From UHGV virus genome UHGV-0038496: 64,000 bases of DNA, one strand, 5' to 3'. How positions within the stretch are numbered: the first letter of the stretch is position 1; each line of letters opens with the position of its first letter. The position numbers and the translations under genes are program-made. Below are positions 1 through 7,738 of the stretch, piece after piece. Source of the stretch: a virus. The notes below the pieces were generated by a model, which made no database searches, was not told the DNA's origin, and was given only the letters and a program-made list of their open reading frames with translations.

Positions 1-231
1 GCATCCCCAACGAAGTGCAATAAACTTACTGATTAATTGTGGGCAAGCAACTGAAGGAGCATAGATCCATGCATACCATTCCGGCAGGGTATCGGTGTAC
101 CCCATGTGCAGGAAGACGATAGTCATGGCAAGCATACCAATGTTGGACCACAACTTAGCCTGAGATACCTTATTGGGATCGTCCGGTGCTGCGACCAGCA
201 TCCACAAAAAGGATTTGATTTTCTTGAACAT
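1..231 (-). CDS. Hypothetical small membrane protein, truncated by window edge
   Basis: Minus-strand ATG at 229-231 (MFKKIKSFLWMLVAAPDDPNK...), 77 codons open to position 1; hydrophobic stretch IGMLAMTIVFL; no family recognised. Confidence 0.35.
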   Translation of the reverse strand, partial: MFKKIKSFLWMLVAAPDDPNKVSQAKLWSNIGMLAMTIVFLHMGYTDTLPEWYAWIYAPSVACPQLISKFIALRWGC

Positions 232-241
232 CACCCCTTCT

Positions 242-1306
242 TTACAATGTCTGTACTGTGATCCATTGACCATTTACCAGTTTCTGGAGTGGAGCGGCCC
301 AATAGCCAGCACCACGCAATTGTTTCTTGTTACCATTCTGCCAACCACGCATTACGTAGCCAGCTCTTACACGGTTATCACCTGTACCGTCTATCAGCAT
401 ACCTCCACAACGAACATCGGAGATAGCTGGTTGCGGTAGCGCTAATGTTAAGTTGCCGTTACCATCTGCTGTGGCACCGTTTACTGACCTGCAAACATGT
501 CTTCCACCTACGACGTGATAATTACCACGGGTTGTGTGACTATCGCAGTTAAAACTGTTGGTATGAAGGTTACCACAAGAGGTCTGGCTTGATACAGAAG
601 CTGTACTCCAGATACTAACAGTGTTACCGTTCATAGAACCAGCACGTAAGTTATCAGCAGCGATAATGTCACCTACTACGGACAATCTACCACGGTTTGG
701 AGAGATAGCACACAGTTTCATCAGTGTGAACAGGCTACCACCTACAGGGTGGAATCTGTAGCGGAACCCTTCTGTACCTGTGTAGTAGGATGCTTCAAGG
801 TCTGCTGTACCGTAGTTGTCGGACATACGAAAATCGAAATAGGTTTTATCCCCACCTTTATACCCAGGGGTATCTGCAATCGTGGAACAGTAAATCGCAC
901 AAGTATCTGTATTGGCAGATGTGAAATTAATCCTTGTAACCCCTAAAGTCATGTTACCTTTCAAGGTATCCCCTGTCAGGTGAACATAACGGTCATCCAT
1001 CTCCGCTATTGTCAGGCAACCAAGATTTTCCCTTGCAGCAGCTTTGTCCGGTATCTCTGCCAGGTTGTTAGCAACTCGTAAAAAACGGTCATCCCACCCT
1101 GGGATGGCCTCTTCGTTCATGTATTTCAGCCAGTTACCAATCATGTTGAACTCAAAATTCATATGCTCAACAGCAATTTTCTGACTGAAGTCCCAACCCG
1201 CTAACCTCCGTTCATCATTGGGCTGGACCTTATTCAATTCTCGTGTGGTGTCAAGCAGTGCATCCTGATATGCCCACACCTCAAGTGGATAAGTCGGTTT
1301 TGGCAT
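242..1306 (-). CDS. Tail fibre tip protein, paralog A
   Basis: 354 aa; GDT(L/M)xG fibre motif; N- and C-terminal ends conserved with 2345..3385, last 34 aa (RGAGYWAAPLQKLVNGQWITVQTL) almost identical. Confidence 0.75.
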   Translation of the reverse strand: MPKPTYPLEVWAYQDALLDTTRELNKVQPNDERRLAGWDFSQKIAVEHMNFEFNMIGNWLKYMNEEAIPGWDDRFLRVANNLAEIPDKAAARENLGCLTIAEMDDRYVHLTGDTLKGNMTLGVTRINFTSANTDTCAIYCSTIADTPGYKGGDKTYFDFRMSDNYGTADLEASYYTGTEGFRYRFHPVGGSLFTLMKLCAISPNRGRLSVVGDIIAADNLRAGSMNGNTVSIWSTASVSSQTSCGNLHTNSFNCDSHTTRGNYHVVGGRHVCRSVNGATADGNGNLTLALPQPAISDVRCGGMLIDGTGDNRVRAGYVMRGWQNGNKKQLRGAGYWAAPLQKLVNGQWITVQTL

Positions 1307-1386
1307 GTTTTCTCCTGACTAAAATTCTTGACATTATTTTAGCACTAAACTCCTCAAAATGCAACCAGAGGCTTCCTTGCCGTTGG

Positions 1387-1701
1387 TTATTTCTCCTTGT
1401 TACTCAGGAGAATCTGGATAATTTGTTGAATGTCGCTCCGCAATCCATTAACGTCACTTTTGACCTCTTTCCTTAACTCGTCAAGGTTATCTTGAATATC
1501 TTTAAGACGCTGGTTCAACACCGCGTCAAGTCTATCTTTTGTAACCATATTGCTTTTCACCAAAATAAGGTCCTTCTCTAAATCATCCAATCTTTTAGAG
1601 ACGGCTTTCCACTTTACGTGCCACTGACCAAAAATCCAGACACCTATCGGGACAATAACGCTCATGATTATCTCAAAAAGCGTACCAAAGTCCAGTTCCA
1701 C
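1387..1701 (-). CDS. Membrane-anchored coiled-coil protein (unknown function)
   Basis: 104 aa; N-terminal hydrophobic helix IIMSVIVPIGVWIFGQW followed by heptad-rich charged region. Confidence 0.45.
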   Translation of the reverse strand: MELDFGTLFEIIMSVIVPIGVWIFGQWHVKWKAVSKRLDDLEKDLILVKSNMVTKDRLDAVLNQRLKDIQDNLDELRKEVKSDVNGLRSDIQQIIQILLSNKEK

Positions 1702-1710
1702 ATTACCTCC

Positions 1711-2328
1711 TTAGAAGGCTGGGCGATCAGGGATATGTATGTTAGGGGCTTTGTTTATATCAATCTCCAGTAGGTGAATCCTGTAAAGTTTCAGTTCCTT
1801 AACAAACTGCTCCTGTTCAGGAGATAGTATATAATCCAAGTCCAGCATGTCGCTGAAAGCTCCAAGCCTTGCTGTAGCCCATTGCAATTCTTCTTCAATG
1901 ATCTGCTGTGCAGCATCGATGTAAGGTTTGTTATCAACAACAAATTTCTCACCATCCCAGCGGTAGGCATTGATCATGTTCTCAATGTCTTCCGGGAACT
2001 CCTCTCGTTTACCGTGCAGGACTTGAAGACCATCACTGGGGAAAATACCTGCGGGATCTGTGGTTACAATTTTCAGTAAACCATCGGATTCTATAACTGC
2101 GAACAGGTATTCTACTCCAGATTCCTGGGCAATTTGCTGTAATTCTCGTGTCTGGGCGTACCAGTCACCGTGCTCATTGCGAAGGAAGTAAGCAGAATAA
2201 CGAGCGTAATCTTCAATCTCCTGCTCTGTTAATTCCAAGGTTTGTGGCTGATCTTCATCGAGAGCCAACACCATCGGGCGAGGCTCTTGCGGATCATACA
2301 GCTCAAAACCTGTAGCCATTTTGATCAT
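1711..2328 (-). CDS. Tail fibre assembly chaperone (Tfa-like)
   Basis: 205 aa directly downstream of fibre gene B; C-terminal motif LKLYRIHLLEIDINKAPNIHIPDRP resembles the conserved Tfa C-terminus (lambda Tfa family). Confidence 0.6.
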   Translation of the reverse strand: MIKMATGFELYDPQEPRPMVLALDEDQPQTLELTEQEIEDYARYSAYFLRNEHGDWYAQTRELQQIAQESGVEYLFAVIESDGLLKIVTTDPAGIFPSDGLQVLHGKREEFPEDIENMINAYRWDGEKFVVDNKPYIDAAQQIIEEELQWATARLGAFSDMLDLDYILSPEQEQFVKELKLYRIHLLEIDINKAPNIHIPDRPAF

Positions 2329-2344
2329 AATATGTAACCCTCAA

Positions 2345-3385
2345 TTATAGTGTCTGAACGGTAATCCACTGTCCGTTAACAAGTTTCTGTAGCGGAGCTG
2401 CCCAGTAACCTGCACCACGGAGTTCTTTTTTGTTACCGTTAGCCCATCCTCTCATAACATAACCCGGACGTACCCTATTATTAGAAACCCCATCGATCAA
2501 CATACCGCCGCAGCGAATATCCTGAACGCCTGAAGCTGGGATACTGATAGTCAAGTTACCATTACCATCCGCGTTCACACCGTTGACTGAACGAACTACA
2601 TGGCGACCACCAACCACACAATACTGGCTACGGACTGTCATGTTATCGACGTTGGAACCACCGTTAGCATAGAAGCTACCTGTGGTCAACTGGCTCGATA
2701 CGCTGACGTTACCGAAGGAAGCTGTACCAGTAATGGTGACTGTGTTGGAACGCACGTTGTCCTGTGCTTCAATGTTACCAATGACTTTGAGAAGTGCACG
2801 GTTAACAGAGATAGCATTCAGATGCATCAGTGTAAACTCTGGGTTGATATCCGGTTGTGTAGGTTGGAATCTCCAACGGAAAGCATCAACTATGGAAGTA
2901 CCACCATCGTCGAATGAACCAACGTTATCCATCAAGCAGAAGTCTAACAAGGTTTTATCTGGACTGATTGTGGTTTCTATCCACGCCGCATCTGTTTCCG
3001 CTGCCGCAAAGTTAATGCGTTGCAATCCCAGAGGACCTGTCATTGTGTCACCAGTGATCTTGACGTAACGTGCGTCAGTCTCAGCTTTAGTAACAATGCC
3101 GAGGTTTTTACGGGCAATCTCTACATTCAAAAGATCGCTCAAGTTGTTGTCCTTAATAAGATAACGTCCTTCCATAGACGGGATCTGATCTTCGGAAATG
3201 TATTTGGCCCAGGTAGCCAGCATGTTGATGAGGTAGTTCAACTCTTCACATGATGGTTTCTGCCCTTTATCCCAACCTTTTCTCCAGAGATCGTCAATAG
3301 GACGCATCTTATTCTGTTTATGGGAGTTGGGGAGGATTTGATCCTCCGCAGCCCATATCTCTAAAGGAAAACTAGGTTTAGCCAT
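2345..3385 (-). CDS. Tail fibre tip protein, paralog B
   Basis: 346 aa; ITGDTMTGPL motif; shares N- and C-terminal blocks with 242..1306. Confidence 0.75.
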   Translation of the reverse strand: MAKPSFPLEIWAAEDQILPNSHKQNKMRPIDDLWRKGWDKGQKPSCEELNYLINMLATWAKYISEDQIPSMEGRYLIKDNNLSDLLNVEIARKNLGIVTKAETDARYVKITGDTMTGPLGLQRINFAAAETDAAWIETTISPDKTLLDFCLMDNVGSFDDGGTSIVDAFRWRFQPTQPDINPEFTLMHLNAISVNRALLKVIGNIEAQDNVRSNTVTITGTASFGNVSVSSQLTTGSFYANGGSNVDNMTVRSQYCVVGGRHVVRSVNGVNADGNGNLTISIPASGVQDIRCGGMLIDGVSNNRVRPGYVMRGWANGNKKELRGAGYWAAPLQKLVNGQWITVQTL

Positions 3386-3398
3386 TTATTTCTCCTGA

Positions 3399-5477
3399 TT
3401 ATGAAAGGTCTGGTGGTGTCACATCTTCTGTGTAGCTTTTAAGGGCTGTCTGCCCCATGTGAACAACAGTTGACTCTTTCGCACTGAATGTGATACTATC
3501 ATTCATAAGTTGAGGATAAGCCCATACGTACTGCTGTACTTCTGGGTAATGATACTCAGTGGTGCAGATATTACCACAGATCATTCTCCACAAAAATTCC
3601 TGATAGTTCTTCTCTGGGTCATAGCCATACACCGGAGCTAAATCTTTACCTGGTACAAACCCTGCGAGGTAGTGGATTTCGTTCCTGTTCCACCCCAAGG
3701 TTTTACGAGGATGTTCGATAGCTTCGAATGAACGTTCTATTTTCCCATTCATAACCCAATCATAGCATTCTGAACAGAAGAAGTCAAGTACTCCTGACTC
3801 TTTCTTGTACTCATCCGGCAGGTTAAGTTTTTCCATCACTGTACCAACAATGGTGGGATAGAAAACAAGGACTGTAACCTGAGCGCCAGGGAATGCTGCT
3901 TTAATTCCGGCAGAGATTGTTGCAATTCTCTGACCGAATTTTTTACGACAGAATGCGATGTACCTGTCATAAACACCACCAGTTAATGGTTTGTCAATGG
4001 TGCCCATGTCAAGTGCATACTCTCCTGTTTCCCTGTAGAACAGCTCTTTTGTGGTGTAGTCGTAAATACAAGGCTTGCGAGAGTCTGTATTGTACCACCA
4101 CCACGGTTCGCCAATCTGCATAATAACAGGAAGGTTTTTACTTTTCAAGATCTGAGCGAAGTTTTTAAAGACGCTCAGCAGGAATGTCATACCCCCTTCG
4201 ATACAAGGCGATAACAGGTAGCTGCAAGGTGTATACCCTGTCTTAGCGTAGCTATCGTCCCATTCGCGTTGAGTCCATTCCAGAGGACAGGCATCACTAT
4301 AAAGCTCCATGCTGACAGAGAACATTGCATCAGTGAATCCGTAACGAGTCAAATTGTAAGCAAAGTCATCATGCCATGCTTTGGCAGCTTTGTTCAGAGT
4401 ACCTGATCTGTCGATTTCCCATTTGTGAGTTGAGCTTCCCCATGAGTAATTATAATAGTGACTCATACCGCAATAGTGGTTGATTCTACCACGGTAGCCA
4501 AGTTTCTGGAGGTTGTAAAGAACACGCGCTGGGGAAACATTCCACATATCATCGTATGCAGTGCAAGCCCTTAAATCGTGACCTTCTACAGTCAGATCAT
4601 TAAGCTGCATGTATTTCCAGCCAGTGTCCGGCTCCAGCATATCAATGCGAAGTTCACAGTCAACATTAGTTGTGCGAACGTCTGTGCTGTTGGCAACATA
4701 ATCCTTAGGCATTAACGGGATCAGGATCTTGCGAACCTGACGAGGGTCAACTGCCACCAAGTAATTATTTTTGTCAACACCCAGACAATCCTCAAAATTG
4801 AGGTGAATATCTGCTGTGGTTTTATCAGCAGAAATGTTAGAAGCATAGTCCGACATACGGACGTAAACTATTGTACCATCAACAAGAGTGATAGTAATTG
4901 TGGCCTGACCTGGGGTTGTAAAGTCAAGAGCGTTGGTGAACTTGACCCTGAACCACAGCTTGGTATTACGCATCTCATAATGATCATCATATCCTACACC
5001 AAAATGGTCGTATGTGTCAACTGTTTCCCAGATTGCTCCAGACATACCCCCCATCGTACGTGAAGTCATTGTGACAATCACTGTGGAGTTGTCTGACTTG
5101 ATCGATGTACTCTCAGTCGGCTGGCAATTTGTTACCCAGTAGCGTGGGTGGAACATTCGTTCTTCTCGTGTTCCCCATTCAAGTCTGCTCAAATCTTCTC
5201 GTGAAATGATCGTGCATTTTGCTTGTTTGGTCCCAATTACCGTCCCCTGTGAGGGGGTATGGAACTGCATATAGAAGCTACGAGGCAGTCTGTTAGGTTT
5301 TTTATCCACAATATTAACAGGGATATCCACAAAAGCAGAATCCACTGGGATGATCGCCTTGCCTTCGACGTGAGTGTAATCACGCCCAGGCACAGCGGTA
5401 TCTGCCAGGGTGTTATACATAAATTCTGCCTGGAGTGTGGTGTAATCCCTGTAAGTTCTGAATACAGCGGTTGCCAT
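3399..5477 (-). CDS. Large tail/baseplate-associated structural protein
   Basis: 692 aa ORF in tail-fibre/baseplate block, Trp/Tyr-rich; function not recognisable. Confidence 0.5.
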   Translation of the reverse strand: MATAVFRTYRDYTTLQAEFMYNTLADTAVPGRDYTHVEGKAIIPVDSAFVDIPVNIVDKKPNRLPRSFYMQFHTPSQGTVIGTKQAKCTIISREDLSRLEWGTREERMFHPRYWVTNCQPTESTSIKSDNSTVIVTMTSRTMGGMSGAIWETVDTYDHFGVGYDDHYEMRNTKLWFRVKFTNALDFTTPGQATITITLVDGTIVYVRMSDYASNISADKTTADIHLNFEDCLGVDKNNYLVAVDPRQVRKILIPLMPKDYVANSTDVRTTNVDCELRIDMLEPDTGWKYMQLNDLTVEGHDLRACTAYDDMWNVSPARVLYNLQKLGYRGRINHYCGMSHYYNYSWGSSTHKWEIDRSGTLNKAAKAWHDDFAYNLTRYGFTDAMFSVSMELYSDACPLEWTQREWDDSYAKTGYTPCSYLLSPCIEGGMTFLLSVFKNFAQILKSKNLPVIMQIGEPWWWYNTDSRKPCIYDYTTKELFYRETGEYALDMGTIDKPLTGGVYDRYIAFCRKKFGQRIATISAGIKAAFPGAQVTVLVFYPTIVGTVMEKLNLPDEYKKESGVLDFFCSECYDWVMNGKIERSFEAIEHPRKTLGWNRNEIHYLAGFVPGKDLAPVYGYDPEKNYQEFLWRMICGNICTTEYHYPEVQQYVWAYPQLMNDSITFSAKESTVVHMGQTALKSYTEDVTPPDLS

Positions 5478-6166
5478 TAAGCCTCCGTAACGATAGTTGC
5501 GTCAACAACAATATTTTCACACCAAACAGTGGTGGAACCCCAATCAGGCCGTTCATCCGGTACATAAACCAGAGTAGCAATACCGTCTACCCCGAACTGC
5601 TCATCGTCCCAGACTGATCCAAATCCAGCAGCTGTATCATCTCCAGCAAAACCAAATGCCCTGCCCTGTGATTCTGTCAATCTCAGGTGAGTTGGCAGCG
5701 GCATCATATCAAGGATCTGATCAACTGCCTGACTAATGTCGAAGCAAGTTTTCCTGACGTTAATGTCGAATCGGAAGTTGTCCCCAGCCCATGTATCGAA
5801 ATTGTTTCTGCCCAGCAGCTGTTGTAGCGTAGAGATCACATCCTCACGCGTACCACCACGGGACAAAGATGCCTGTTGAATAATAAGTGTAGCACGATAG
5901 TCTGCATCTTGCAAGCCATTTCTTTTTATGCCAAACTGCTTACCAATCTCATCAAAATATTTACCGCTGGCATTGTTAAGTAGACGGCCTTCTGCAAGAG
6001 CAACTAACATCTCATCAACAGTCTGCAACCTTTTAAGGTAGATAGACAGGAACGTTGTCAGGTCTTCTTTCTCTCTCAGAAAATCGCCGGGGAGGTAATC
6101 CAGACCTCCCTCAACGAAATCTGGCAGAGTGTGAATGTGGTTAACATCTATTTTCTTCTCTGCCAT
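5477..6166 (-). CDS. Hypothetical baseplate-module protein
   Basis: 229 aa, start overlaps upstream stop (operon coupling). Confidence 0.5.
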   Translation of the reverse strand: MAEKKIDVNHIHTLPDFVEGGLDYLPGDFLREKEDLTTFLSIYLKRLQTVDEMLVALAEGRLLNNASGKYFDEIGKQFGIKRNGLQDADYRATLIIQQASLSRGGTREDVISTLQQLLGRNNFDTWAGDNFRFDINVRKTCFDISQAVDQILDMMPLPTHLRLTESQGRAFGFAGDDTAAGFGSVWDDEQFGVDGIATLVYVPDERPDWGSTTVWCENIVVDATIVTEA

Positions 6167-6175
6167 AACTCCACC

Positions 6176-7666
6176 TTAAATGATTTGCTGGAATGTGATG
6201 TTGTTTTCATCAAGGTCAAACACCTCTGACATTGCAGCTGTAATGTCAGTAGCTGTATAAGCCTCATCTGAAGCACCAATCGGTTTCACATGGATGCTCA
6301 ATTTGTTAAAACGACCGATACTAACAGCAGCAGAAGCAGCACCTACAAGCTGAATGTTGTAAAGCGTATCTGCAATATCGAGGCCGTTAACAACTGCCAT
6401 CATGGCATCTATGATTGATTCTTTTTCGGTAGCAGAAAGTGCCACACCGGAATACGTTACCTTAACGTCCAGACGGTAAGTATTTGCTTTGGAGTAGTAA
6501 ATTCTTTCCACCTGACCATCTGAGGTGTTGATATCGTAGAACAGGTTACCGTAAGTCCTGTTCGTACAAGCAACCGTATCATACAGAGCCTGACAAATAT
6601 CAGCAGTGGAGCCACCAAACACAACCACCTGGAACTTATAAGGCGGGATGCCTAAGTTGTTAGTCTTATCTGTGTTGTTGGTGAATACCCTGACTTTACT
6701 TACCCCAGCCACATTGTGAATCGCACTCAGGATCGCAGGACGAGTAGCTTTAGCAGTTACCGTGTTGGTGCTTGTAGCTCTCAGGCGATACTCAGCGTCT
6801 GTCTCTACGTTTGTACCTTCGTTGAACATCTCTCTGTTGGTGAGGGAGATGAAACCACTAGGTGTCGGAGAGATCGTGGTAACAGTGTTTGCTTCACGGG
6901 ACATTTCACCTGCTTCAGAAGCGATGACTTCCAGCACGACTGTACGTTCACCAACAATCGGAGAAATACGGAAGTCAACTTTACTGTTCAGGCCTACACG
7001 TTCAAGAGTGGCATCATAGCCAATCCACAACGTACCTGTGGACATATCCACTTGAATCAAATCTTCGTTCAAAAGCGTGGAGTTGTCAACAATAAATTGC
7101 TTGATCTCACCATAGAAACTAACAAGGTCTGTGGAATCCAGTGCCTTATCAGTAAGAATCATGGTTTTGGTAAAAATAGTGCCATCAACCTGATTGGTCA
7201 TCTGGAATATGTATTTACCAATTCTGAGATCCGGTGCTGTTATCTTGTGAGCAATTATGTTGCCTGCTACCTGTGCATTACTTGCGAGTTTGAAGTTACC
7301 ACTGTCAATGCTATAAGTTTCTGTGTCGTAAATCATATTATAAGGGACAGTACTGTTGATTGTCAACTGGCACTGACCAGAAGCCTTAGTACGCCCTCTA
7401 CGATAAACACCTTGTCTCCCCAGTAATTCATCAAGGTAGATGCCTTCTGCCCCGTACAGCGTCTGGGAGGCGTATACAGCAGCCATCATGAGGATTAACT
7501 GGTATTCACGTTCGTTAAAGATTGTGGTGAGCTTGTCAGCAACCGAGTTGCTCTGGACGTTGAAATTATCCCCGAACGCCCTGATCAAGCTCTGCTTAGT
7601 TTCAACGATCAAATCGTTAAGTGTGGGCAATATAAACCCAGCATCTGTTAAACCATATTTAGCCAT
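6176..7666 (-). CDS. Baseplate structural protein (putative)
   Basis: Start set at MAKYGL (codon 22 of the called ORF) with GAGG Shine-Dalgarno; 496 aa. Confidence 0.5.
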   Translation of the reverse strand: MAKYGLTDAGFILPTLNDLIVETKQSLIRAFGDNFNVQSNSVADKLTTIFNEREYQLILMMAAVYASQTLYGAEGIYLDELLGRQGVYRRGRTKASGQCQLTINSTVPYNMIYDTETYSIDSGNFKLASNAQVAGNIIAHKITAPDLRIGKYIFQMTNQVDGTIFTKTMILTDKALDSTDLVSFYGEIKQFIVDNSTLLNEDLIQVDMSTGTLWIGYDATLERVGLNSKVDFRISPIVGERTVVLEVIASEAGEMSREANTVTTISPTPSGFISLTNREMFNEGTNVETDAEYRLRATSTNTVTAKATRPAILSAIHNVAGVSKVRVFTNNTDKTNNLGIPPYKFQVVVFGGSTADICQALYDTVACTNRTYGNLFYDINTSDGQVERIYYSKANTYRLDVKVTYSGVALSATEKESIIDAMMAVVNGLDIADTLYNIQLVGAASAAVSIGRFNKLSIHVKPIGASDEAYTATDITAAMSEVFDLDENNITFQQII

Positions 7667-7738
7667 ATTTCCTCTCAGTTGGGAGAAACCCTTGTGACCT
7701 ATTTTACCAAAAAACAGCAAAATAGTCAATTACAGATA

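Follow-up and report, generated by a model that had tools for sequence, protein, structure and literature searches.

The viral genome UHGV-0038496 was analyzed as a 64,000-nt stretch (hereafter "the window"), which carries near its start two short tail fibre genes, copy A (242..1306, 354 aa) and copy B (2345..3385, 346 aa), with nearly identical C-terminal ends. All genes within positions 1-7700 lie on the minus strand, and along this strand the block comprises a baseplate wedge subunit (496 aa, 6176..7666), a baseplate protein (229 aa, 5477..6166; PHROG 4056 "baseplate protein", E = 2.3e-94), a fibre or baseplate-periphery protein directly upstream of copy B (692 aa, 3399..5477), copy B itself, the tail fibre chaperone Tfa (205 aa, 1711..2328), a protein with a transmembrane segment and a coiled coil (104 aa, 1387..1701; PHROG 5345, E = 1.7e-34), copy A, and a small membrane protein that is cut by the window edge (1..231, extending beyond position 1; PHROG 1322 "membrane protein", E = 1.3e-26). 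Tfa matches Pfam PF02413 (Caudo_TAP) over residues 115-204 (28.7 bits, cutoff 22.1) as well as PHROG 136 (E = 6e-20), and is the only chaperone of the fibre module. A preliminary description of this DNA, made from its letters alone, had noted two fibre genes of roughly 350 aa, of which only B is followed by a Tfa-like chaperone, the gene after A being that of a small membrane protein. Both genes are indeed intact open reading frames (ORFs) and their neighbours are as described, with the 104-aa gene, absent from that description, lying between Tfa and A. The same Shine-Dalgarno sequence, TCAGGAGAAA, precedes the start codons of both A and B. A consensus scan found no terminator between the genes of the block, and promoter-like sites were not in excess over shuffled sequences; these scans have no bearing either way on a separate regulation of A and B, and the simplest reading is that the block is co-transcribed as one late structural operon.

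Gene by gene, the block matches gp36 to gp29 of phage rV5 at 45-81% amino acid identity, and its gene order and orientation are identical to those of the rV5 and Bas49 (EmilHeitz) loci: the gp36 wedge protein (79% over 496 aa), gp35 (76%), gp34 (67%), the gp33 fibre (74% to B), the gp32 Tfa (45%), gp31 (51%), the gp30 fibre (47% to A) and the gp29 membrane protein (81% over 75 aa). Both copies belong to PHROG 4465 "tail fiber protein" over nearly their entire length (A: E = 2.5e-114, residues 1-353 on profile positions 1-341 of 342; B: E = 1.1e-149, residues 1-345), and neither has a significant match in Pfam or NCBIfam. Copy A is orthologous to gp30 at its N-terminus, where the first 96 aa are 57% identical to gp30 vs. 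43% to gp33. Searched with tblastn against 50,697 phage records, either copy matched ~400 records, with two fibre places per genome in every Vequintavirus and one in other genera (Avunavirus, Seunavirus, phi92). The window carries the baseplate and tail fibre block of an uncultured rV5-like (Vequintavirinae-type) myovirus, and A and B are its paralogous short tail fibres, equivalent to gp30 and gp33. Such an arrangement is already known in rV5-like phages: for the Vequintavirinae sensu stricto, Maffei et al. (2021, S5D Fig and text, PMC8594841) describe a pair of paralogous short tail fibres together with a tail fibre chaperone, and trace the homology of these proteins to the phi92-like locus and, further back, to GpS and GpU of phage Mu.

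The lineage is a new one. A megablast search of window positions 1-6200 against the same 50,697 records returned no close relative and a single 136-bp match (window 6065-6200, 84.7% identity, Salmonella phage 40, KR296694, a 63-kb record in which the match falls under two hypothetical proteins). This lack of any nucleotide-level relative among deposited phages places the window in an undescribed sister lineage. Protein searches recovered eight relatives from Logan, ENA and IMG/VR assemblies (L003-L005 and L011-L015, contigs up to 140 kb), in which the A orthologues are 83-90% identical, and the two-fibre, one-chaperone locus is the same in all nine genomes, i.e., the window and these eight relatives.

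Copies A and B are homologous over their whole length (BLASTP, 51% identity, E = 8e-121), so that their similarity is not confined to a short motif. The preliminary description had proposed that they share their N-terminal and GDTxTG regions and an almost identical final 34 residues, beneath which the DNA differs at many synonymous positions. The N-terminal homology stands, while the GDTxTG motif is found in B only (GDTMTG, against GDTLKG in A). At the C-terminus, a codon alignment of A and B, with the proportions of synonymous (pS) and non-synonymous (pN) differences obtained by region from Nei-Gojobori counts, agreed with that account: 32 of the last 34 residues are identical (pS 0.885, pN 0.057), as are all of the last 24 (24/24, pS 0.89, pN 0), and identity is still 86% over the last 59 residues (pS 0.91, pN 0.12), as compared to 45% in the rest of the protein (pS 0.69, pN 0.38) and about 41-44% in the middle regions. 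The longest nucleotide run shared by the two genes of the window is only 10 nt, and this, together with the saturated synonymous sites, indicates that the C-terminal identity in the window does not stem from a recent DNA copy. Across the whole gene, the same codon is used at 75 identical residues vs. 69.5 expected from independent draws on the phage codon usage, so there is no surplus of shared codons. These C-terminal 59 codons with the stop, which we refer to as the tip (242..421 in A, 2345..2524 in B), form a direct repeat at the DNA level (D1, 71% identity over 184 nt). The pS of the tip (0.91) is above the saturation level of ~0.75.

The duplication itself is old, as the preliminary description had it. 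The order B, Tfa, 104-aa gene, A and membrane protein gene is found in rV5 and all Vequintavirus, and in a neighbour-joining tree of the N-terminal 110 columns A groups with gp30 (82% of bootstraps) and B with gp33 (100%), while A and B of the window lineage never group together (0%). Judged from sequence comparison, the duplication is shown to predate the split of this lineage from rV5. Trees built in the same way for the other regions placed B with gp33 in the middle region (99% bootstrap) and gave the reverse picture in the tip, where A and B of the window lineage group together in 98% of bootstraps and the pairs A with gp30 and B with gp33 are both at 0%. Moreover, within this tip tree A is monophyletic in 17% of bootstraps and B in 0%, and L005_A pairs with L005_B.

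Residue by residue, the same change of allegiance is seen. We counted as derived those residues common to A and B but absent from gp33, gp30 and three outgroups. The N-terminal 96 columns hold 23 residues common to A and gp30 only, 31 common to B and gp33 only, and no derived A/B residue, whereas the corresponding counts for the C-terminal 60 columns are 1, 5 and 10. These 10 derived residues include RC-GGMLI, NRVR, VMRGWxN and the terminal QTL. Over the same 59 codons, rV5 gp30 and gp33 are 43% identical vs. 86-93% for the A and B tips of the window lineage, and this lack of near-identity in rV5 argues that the C-termini of the window lineage were not simply retained since the duplication.

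Direct traces of sequence transfer are found in the relatives. The longest identical run between A and B lies inside the tip in all of the nine genomes but the window, and permutation tests of run length within the tip singled out runs of 110 nt in L005 (P = 5e-5), 59 nt in L014 (P about 5e-4), 30 nt in L004 (P = 0.01) and 29 nt in L011 (P = 0.02). Codon patterns point to transfers both ways, with a B-type stretch in L003_A and an A-type stretch in L004_B. A comparable signal exists in rV5, in which gp30 and gp33 are identical over 30 nt encoding QKLVNGQWIT (P = 5e-5) and also have common lineage-specific terminal residues (..YA), so that micro-conversion at the extreme C-terminus occurs in Vequintavirus as well. 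Taken together, the trees, the derived residues and the identical tracts indicate concerted evolution of the tip, with repeated gene conversion over short tracts and purifying selection acting afterwards. The preliminary description had explained the near-identical C-termini by an old duplication and purifying selection alone; both of these components hold, but they are not a sufficient account of the near-identity, for which gene conversion is needed as well. That purifying selection alone had seemed to suffice is understandable, since the pair of the window is the most diverged of the nine.

We would put the probability of this overall explanation, that of an rV5-like module of two fibres and one Tfa with tips homogenized by gene conversion, at roughly three in four. 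Several observations weigh against it. The window's own A and B lack any conversion tract, which we attribute to an old last conversion, given the saturated synonymous sites and the 10-nt longest run. Within-genome pS between the A and B tips ranges from 0.39 to 0.91 over the nine genomes, and its mean (0.64) is close to that between genomes (0.67), as might arise if recombination of tip alleles between phages contributed; exchange between co-infecting phages may thus add to intragenomic conversion. As for the selective driver, the rV5 gp30 tip is only 43% identical to that of gp33 and still there is one Tfa, so that near-identity is not strictly required for two fibres to share a chaperone, which weakens chaperone sharing as the driver. 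Finally, the binding of Tfa to either tip is extrapolated from homologous systems. Tfa itself is 91-94% identical across the lineage, which is too little variation for a co-variation test with the fibre tips.

To place the tip within the fibre, a family profile built from our alignment A1 (37 members) was searched against PDB sequences with hmmsearch. Profile positions 290-357 match the Mu tail fibre S in complex with its chaperone (5yvq_A, residues 429-503; domain E = 1.8e-8, whole-sequence E = 4.5e-15), and positions 1-88 correspond to the start of the phiTE short tail fibre (9cuy_c, residues 1-85, E = 4e-24; E = 3e-19 for B alone). An AlphaFold2 (AF2) monomer model of B based on the 37-sequence alignment was poor (predicted local distance difference test 62, predicted template modelling score 0.32), as expected for an intertwined trimer. 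Foldseek with this low-confidence model returned 5yvq_A as the only significant match (E = 7e-6), albeit with a template modelling score of 0.18. In phiTE, the N-terminus of the short tail fibre is the joint that fixes the fibre to wedge protein 1 (PMC11972413), and the match to its residues 1-85 means that A and B are complete short tail fibres with a predicted baseplate-docking N-terminus, not the mere "tip genes" of the preliminary description. In Mu, the C-terminus of the fibre is the end involved in cell-surface binding (secondary source, PMC7432712), and TfaMu attaches to the distal portion of the fibre, with which it remains in the virion (secondary source, PMC9608196). For the short tail fibres of the Vequintavirinae (class TC1), the RBPseg study found cryo-electron microscopy density in both Bas49 and Bas54, and describes their C-terminus as Mu-like and probably in need of an assembly protein (PMC12143355).

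These homologies bear on where receptor specificity might reside. The preliminary description had assigned it to the divergent middle regions, but it is the conserved C-terminus, and not the middle, that is homologous to the distal end of Mu S. Since that end of Mu S binds both the cell surface and the chaperone, the near-identical part of A and B is the Mu-type distal tip, and the divergent middle is more likely a shaft or body than the receptor-binding end. We also observed that the last 67 residues of B (280-346, nt 2345-2548) alone match, at ~50% identity, tail fibre genes of ~52-kb Salmonella and Escherichia phages (yarpen, brunost, CF2 and SE13). Such tip-only matches indicate that the Mu-like tip behaves as a mobile module common to unrelated phage groups.

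Each of the better-known systems resembles the window in part. Phage rV5 has the same genes in the same order, and differs in the low identity of its two tips. In phi92, a homologous short fibre (gp147, fibre III) and Tfa (gp148) follow the baseplate wedge genes as in the window, and gp147 has been described as a downward-pointing trimer on the wedge protein gp145, proposed to act in irreversible adsorption (PMC13450770); however, phi92 has a single copy, and no more than 39% of B could be aligned to it by tblastn (43% identity). Mu S (gp49) and U (gp50; PDB 5YVQ) offer the homologous ~65 C-terminal residues (S 429-503) and a Caudo_TAP gene after the fibre gene, while the N-terminal and middle parts of the Mu fibre are unrelated to those of the window, apart from a weak similarity of shaft repeats. 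In Mu, inversion of the G segment switches both C-termini and chaperones (S/U and S'/U'), whereas in the window both fibre genes are complete, point the same way and end in nearly the same C-terminus, with a single chaperone and without an invertible segment. A switch of the Mu/P1 type was considered for the window and rejected, as the genes are direct repeats and inverted repeats within positions 1-3500 are imperfect and at most 19 nt; no invertase gene was found in the fibre block. The phiTE short tail fibre (PDB 9CUY/9MJN) is homologous to the window fibres over its N-terminal ~85 residues and its extreme C-terminus (PMC11972413), but it has 554 aa, including a long coiled coil as well as Ig-like domains, and has been proposed to bind flagella. 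The likeness to T4 gp12 is one of function only, both being baseplate-attached fibres, in the case of gp12 for irreversible binding to the lipopolysaccharide (LPS) core (PMC8594841, PMC13450770); no sequence similarity to gp12 was found, and its chaperone is gp57A rather than Tfa.

From these parallels, a working model can be proposed. Each fibre would be a trimer, by analogy with phi92, phiTE and Mu, whose N-terminal ~90 residues would dock on the baseplate wedge, the rV5 gp36 homologue being the presumed partner, much as has been described for phi92 gp147 (wedge gp145, PMC13450770) and for the short tail fibre of phiTE (wedge 1, PMC11972413). The shaft with the GDT motif and the beta-rich middle would make up the fibre body, and the last ~60-70 residues a distal tip of the Mu GpS type. 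By the same analogies, the single Tfa would fold both fibres by binding this tip and may stay attached to it, and the tip would most likely contact a conserved sugar of the LPS core for irreversible adsorption. What the sequences do show is that, since the split from rV5, the last 59 codons have been repeatedly homogenized by short tracts running in both directions and held by strong purifying selection, with the N-terminal and middle regions diverging independently. The driver would presumably be a requirement for both fibres to fit one chaperone and/or the same receptor. It is tempting to speculate that a single Tfa and/or an LPS-core receptor keeps the 59-codon Mu-like tips interchangeable through short bidirectional conversion while the docking and shaft regions diverge freely, although we hold this specific linkage to be tentative, with odds somewhat below even.

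Both copies are functional and under purifying selection, as judged from the orthologues of the nine genomes. All 18 fibre ORFs are intact (18/18), and the orthologue pN/pS is low outside the tip (0.17 for A, 0.06 for B) as well as inside it (0.16 for A, 0.10 for B). Copy A evolves about three times faster than B at non-synonymous sites (pN 0.062 vs. 0.020), and its middle region varies among relatives (76% identity between the window and L005). In the single-copy genera Avunavirus and Seunavirus, the order is short tail fibre, Tfa, 104-aa protein, 157-aa polytopic membrane protein (L006 5949-6422, L007 5994-6467, L008 6087-6560, L010 6020-6493) and gp29-like protein, and phi92 has a single short tail fibre and Tfa followed by a different downstream gene. 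Copy A of rV5 and of the window lineage fills the slot of the 157-aa gene. We considered this gene as a possible fibre remnant and rejected the idea, as it is unrelated to the fibres and lacks a homologue in the window. At the N-terminus, B and gp33 are closer to the single-copy fibres (55%) than A and gp30 (39-50%), and B keeps its adjacency to Tfa, from which B is probably the parental copy.

Other explanations of the locus were weighed against tips homogenized by gene conversion. The preliminary description had viewed the pair as a dual-specificity host-range module, with receptor specificity in the divergent middles; on this view, A and B would recognize different receptors, and the C-terminus they have in common would serve only for structure or assembly. 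The low identity of the middles (about 41-44%), the threefold faster non-synonymous change of A and the variability of its middle region, as a host-range determinant might vary, are in line with this view, but the pN/pS of A (0.17) denotes purifying and not diversifying selection, and in Mu the homologue of the conserved end is the one that binds the cell surface and Tfa (PMC7432712, PMC9608196). In addition, the Vequintavirus paralogues were reported to be without considerable allelic variation, and every phage tested to depend on the same glucose of the LPS core, so that the published phenotypes suggest a common LPS-core receptor for the Vequintavirinae (PMC8594841). Dual specificity through the middle regions is thus not favoured and seems unlikely, though it is the strongest of these competitors. 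Copy A might also be a redundant duplicate, or one in decay, that does not become part of the virion, given that it has no Tfa of its own, evolves faster than B and sits in the slot of an unrelated 157-aa gene of the single-copy genera; however, its ORF is intact and preceded by a strong Shine-Dalgarno sequence in the nine lineage genomes and all Vequintavirus, and its pN/pS is again that of a constrained gene, which makes decay highly improbable.

Two further readings concern the tip itself. If purifying selection alone had kept the C-terminus near-identical since the duplication, rV5 gp30 would be the lineage that diverged, and it is true that the outgroup tips are closer to the window tips (49-59%) than to rV5 gp30 (34-41%), and that the window has saturated synonymous sites and no identical run above 10 nt. 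Against this stand the 10 derived residues absent from gp33, gp30 and the three outgroups, the failure of A and B to form reciprocally monophyletic groups in the tip tree, and the 110-nt (L005) and 59-nt (L014) tracts, which largely refute pure retention unless the tracts are assembly chimeras; we regard it as very unlikely. Conversely, the high pS of the tip could reflect selection against nucleotide identity, which would prevent a direct-repeat recombination that deletes the Tfa gene. Within the last 60 codons, same-codon use is indeed below random expectation (13 observed vs. 19.3 expected, P = 0.03), and the window has the lowest same-codon fraction at identical residues among the nine genomes (0.28). 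The signal is nevertheless marginal, being an uncorrected P-value from one of several sequence windows, the lower tail of the run-length test gives P = 0.19, and sister genomes tolerate identical runs of 59-110 nt. We consequently rejected anti-recombination recoding as a claim, since the deviation could be chance, and give such selection hardly any credence.

Broadly speaking, this locus extends the rV5-like phages by a divergent, uncultured lineage, with nine genomes sharing a two-fibre, one-chaperone module. The finding is largely ordinary, and its only new detail is the concerted evolution of the tips through gene conversion, a modest one; we found no description of concerted tip evolution in this fibre family in the searchable literature, outside of which most subscription journals lie. 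The ~60 C-terminal residues are in effect a single interchangeable part of the two short fibres that recombines from one paralogue to the other, whereas the N-terminal and middle regions are copy-specific. As Vequintavirinae are candidates for therapy and biocontrol, this bears on fibre engineering and host-range prediction, and it calls for caution with Mu-type fibres, in which the tip is at the C-terminus and a conserved end next to a divergent middle need not mean that the middle determines receptor specificity.

Some features of the neighbouring genes may be mentioned here. The 692-aa gp34 homologue matches the Pfam non-contractile tail sheath protein (NCTSP) TIM barrel (E = 1e-76) and NCTSP_N (E = 4.7e-15) families, with a weak Calx-beta match; a "non-contractile tail sheath protein" is odd in a contractile-tailed phage, and the BASEL annotation of its homologue is a lateral tail fibre with glycosidase and deacetylase domains. 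The 104-aa protein (rV5 gp31 homologue) combines an N-terminal transmembrane segment with a long coiled coil, and PHROG 5345 has no assigned function. This gene is kept directly after Tfa in every Vequintavirinae genus examined, single-copy ones included, and its possible roles include a part in fibre assembly, in lysis (or a function like that of spanins) and in superinfection exclusion. The gp29-like membrane protein downstream of A is 117-126 aa long in the relatives of the window (L003 9076-9432, L004 6024-6404, L005 9067-9447) vs. 88 aa in rV5. Finally, the GC skew of the window flips near 44 kb, from negative before to positive after, which suggests a switch of coding strand between divergent transcription blocks.

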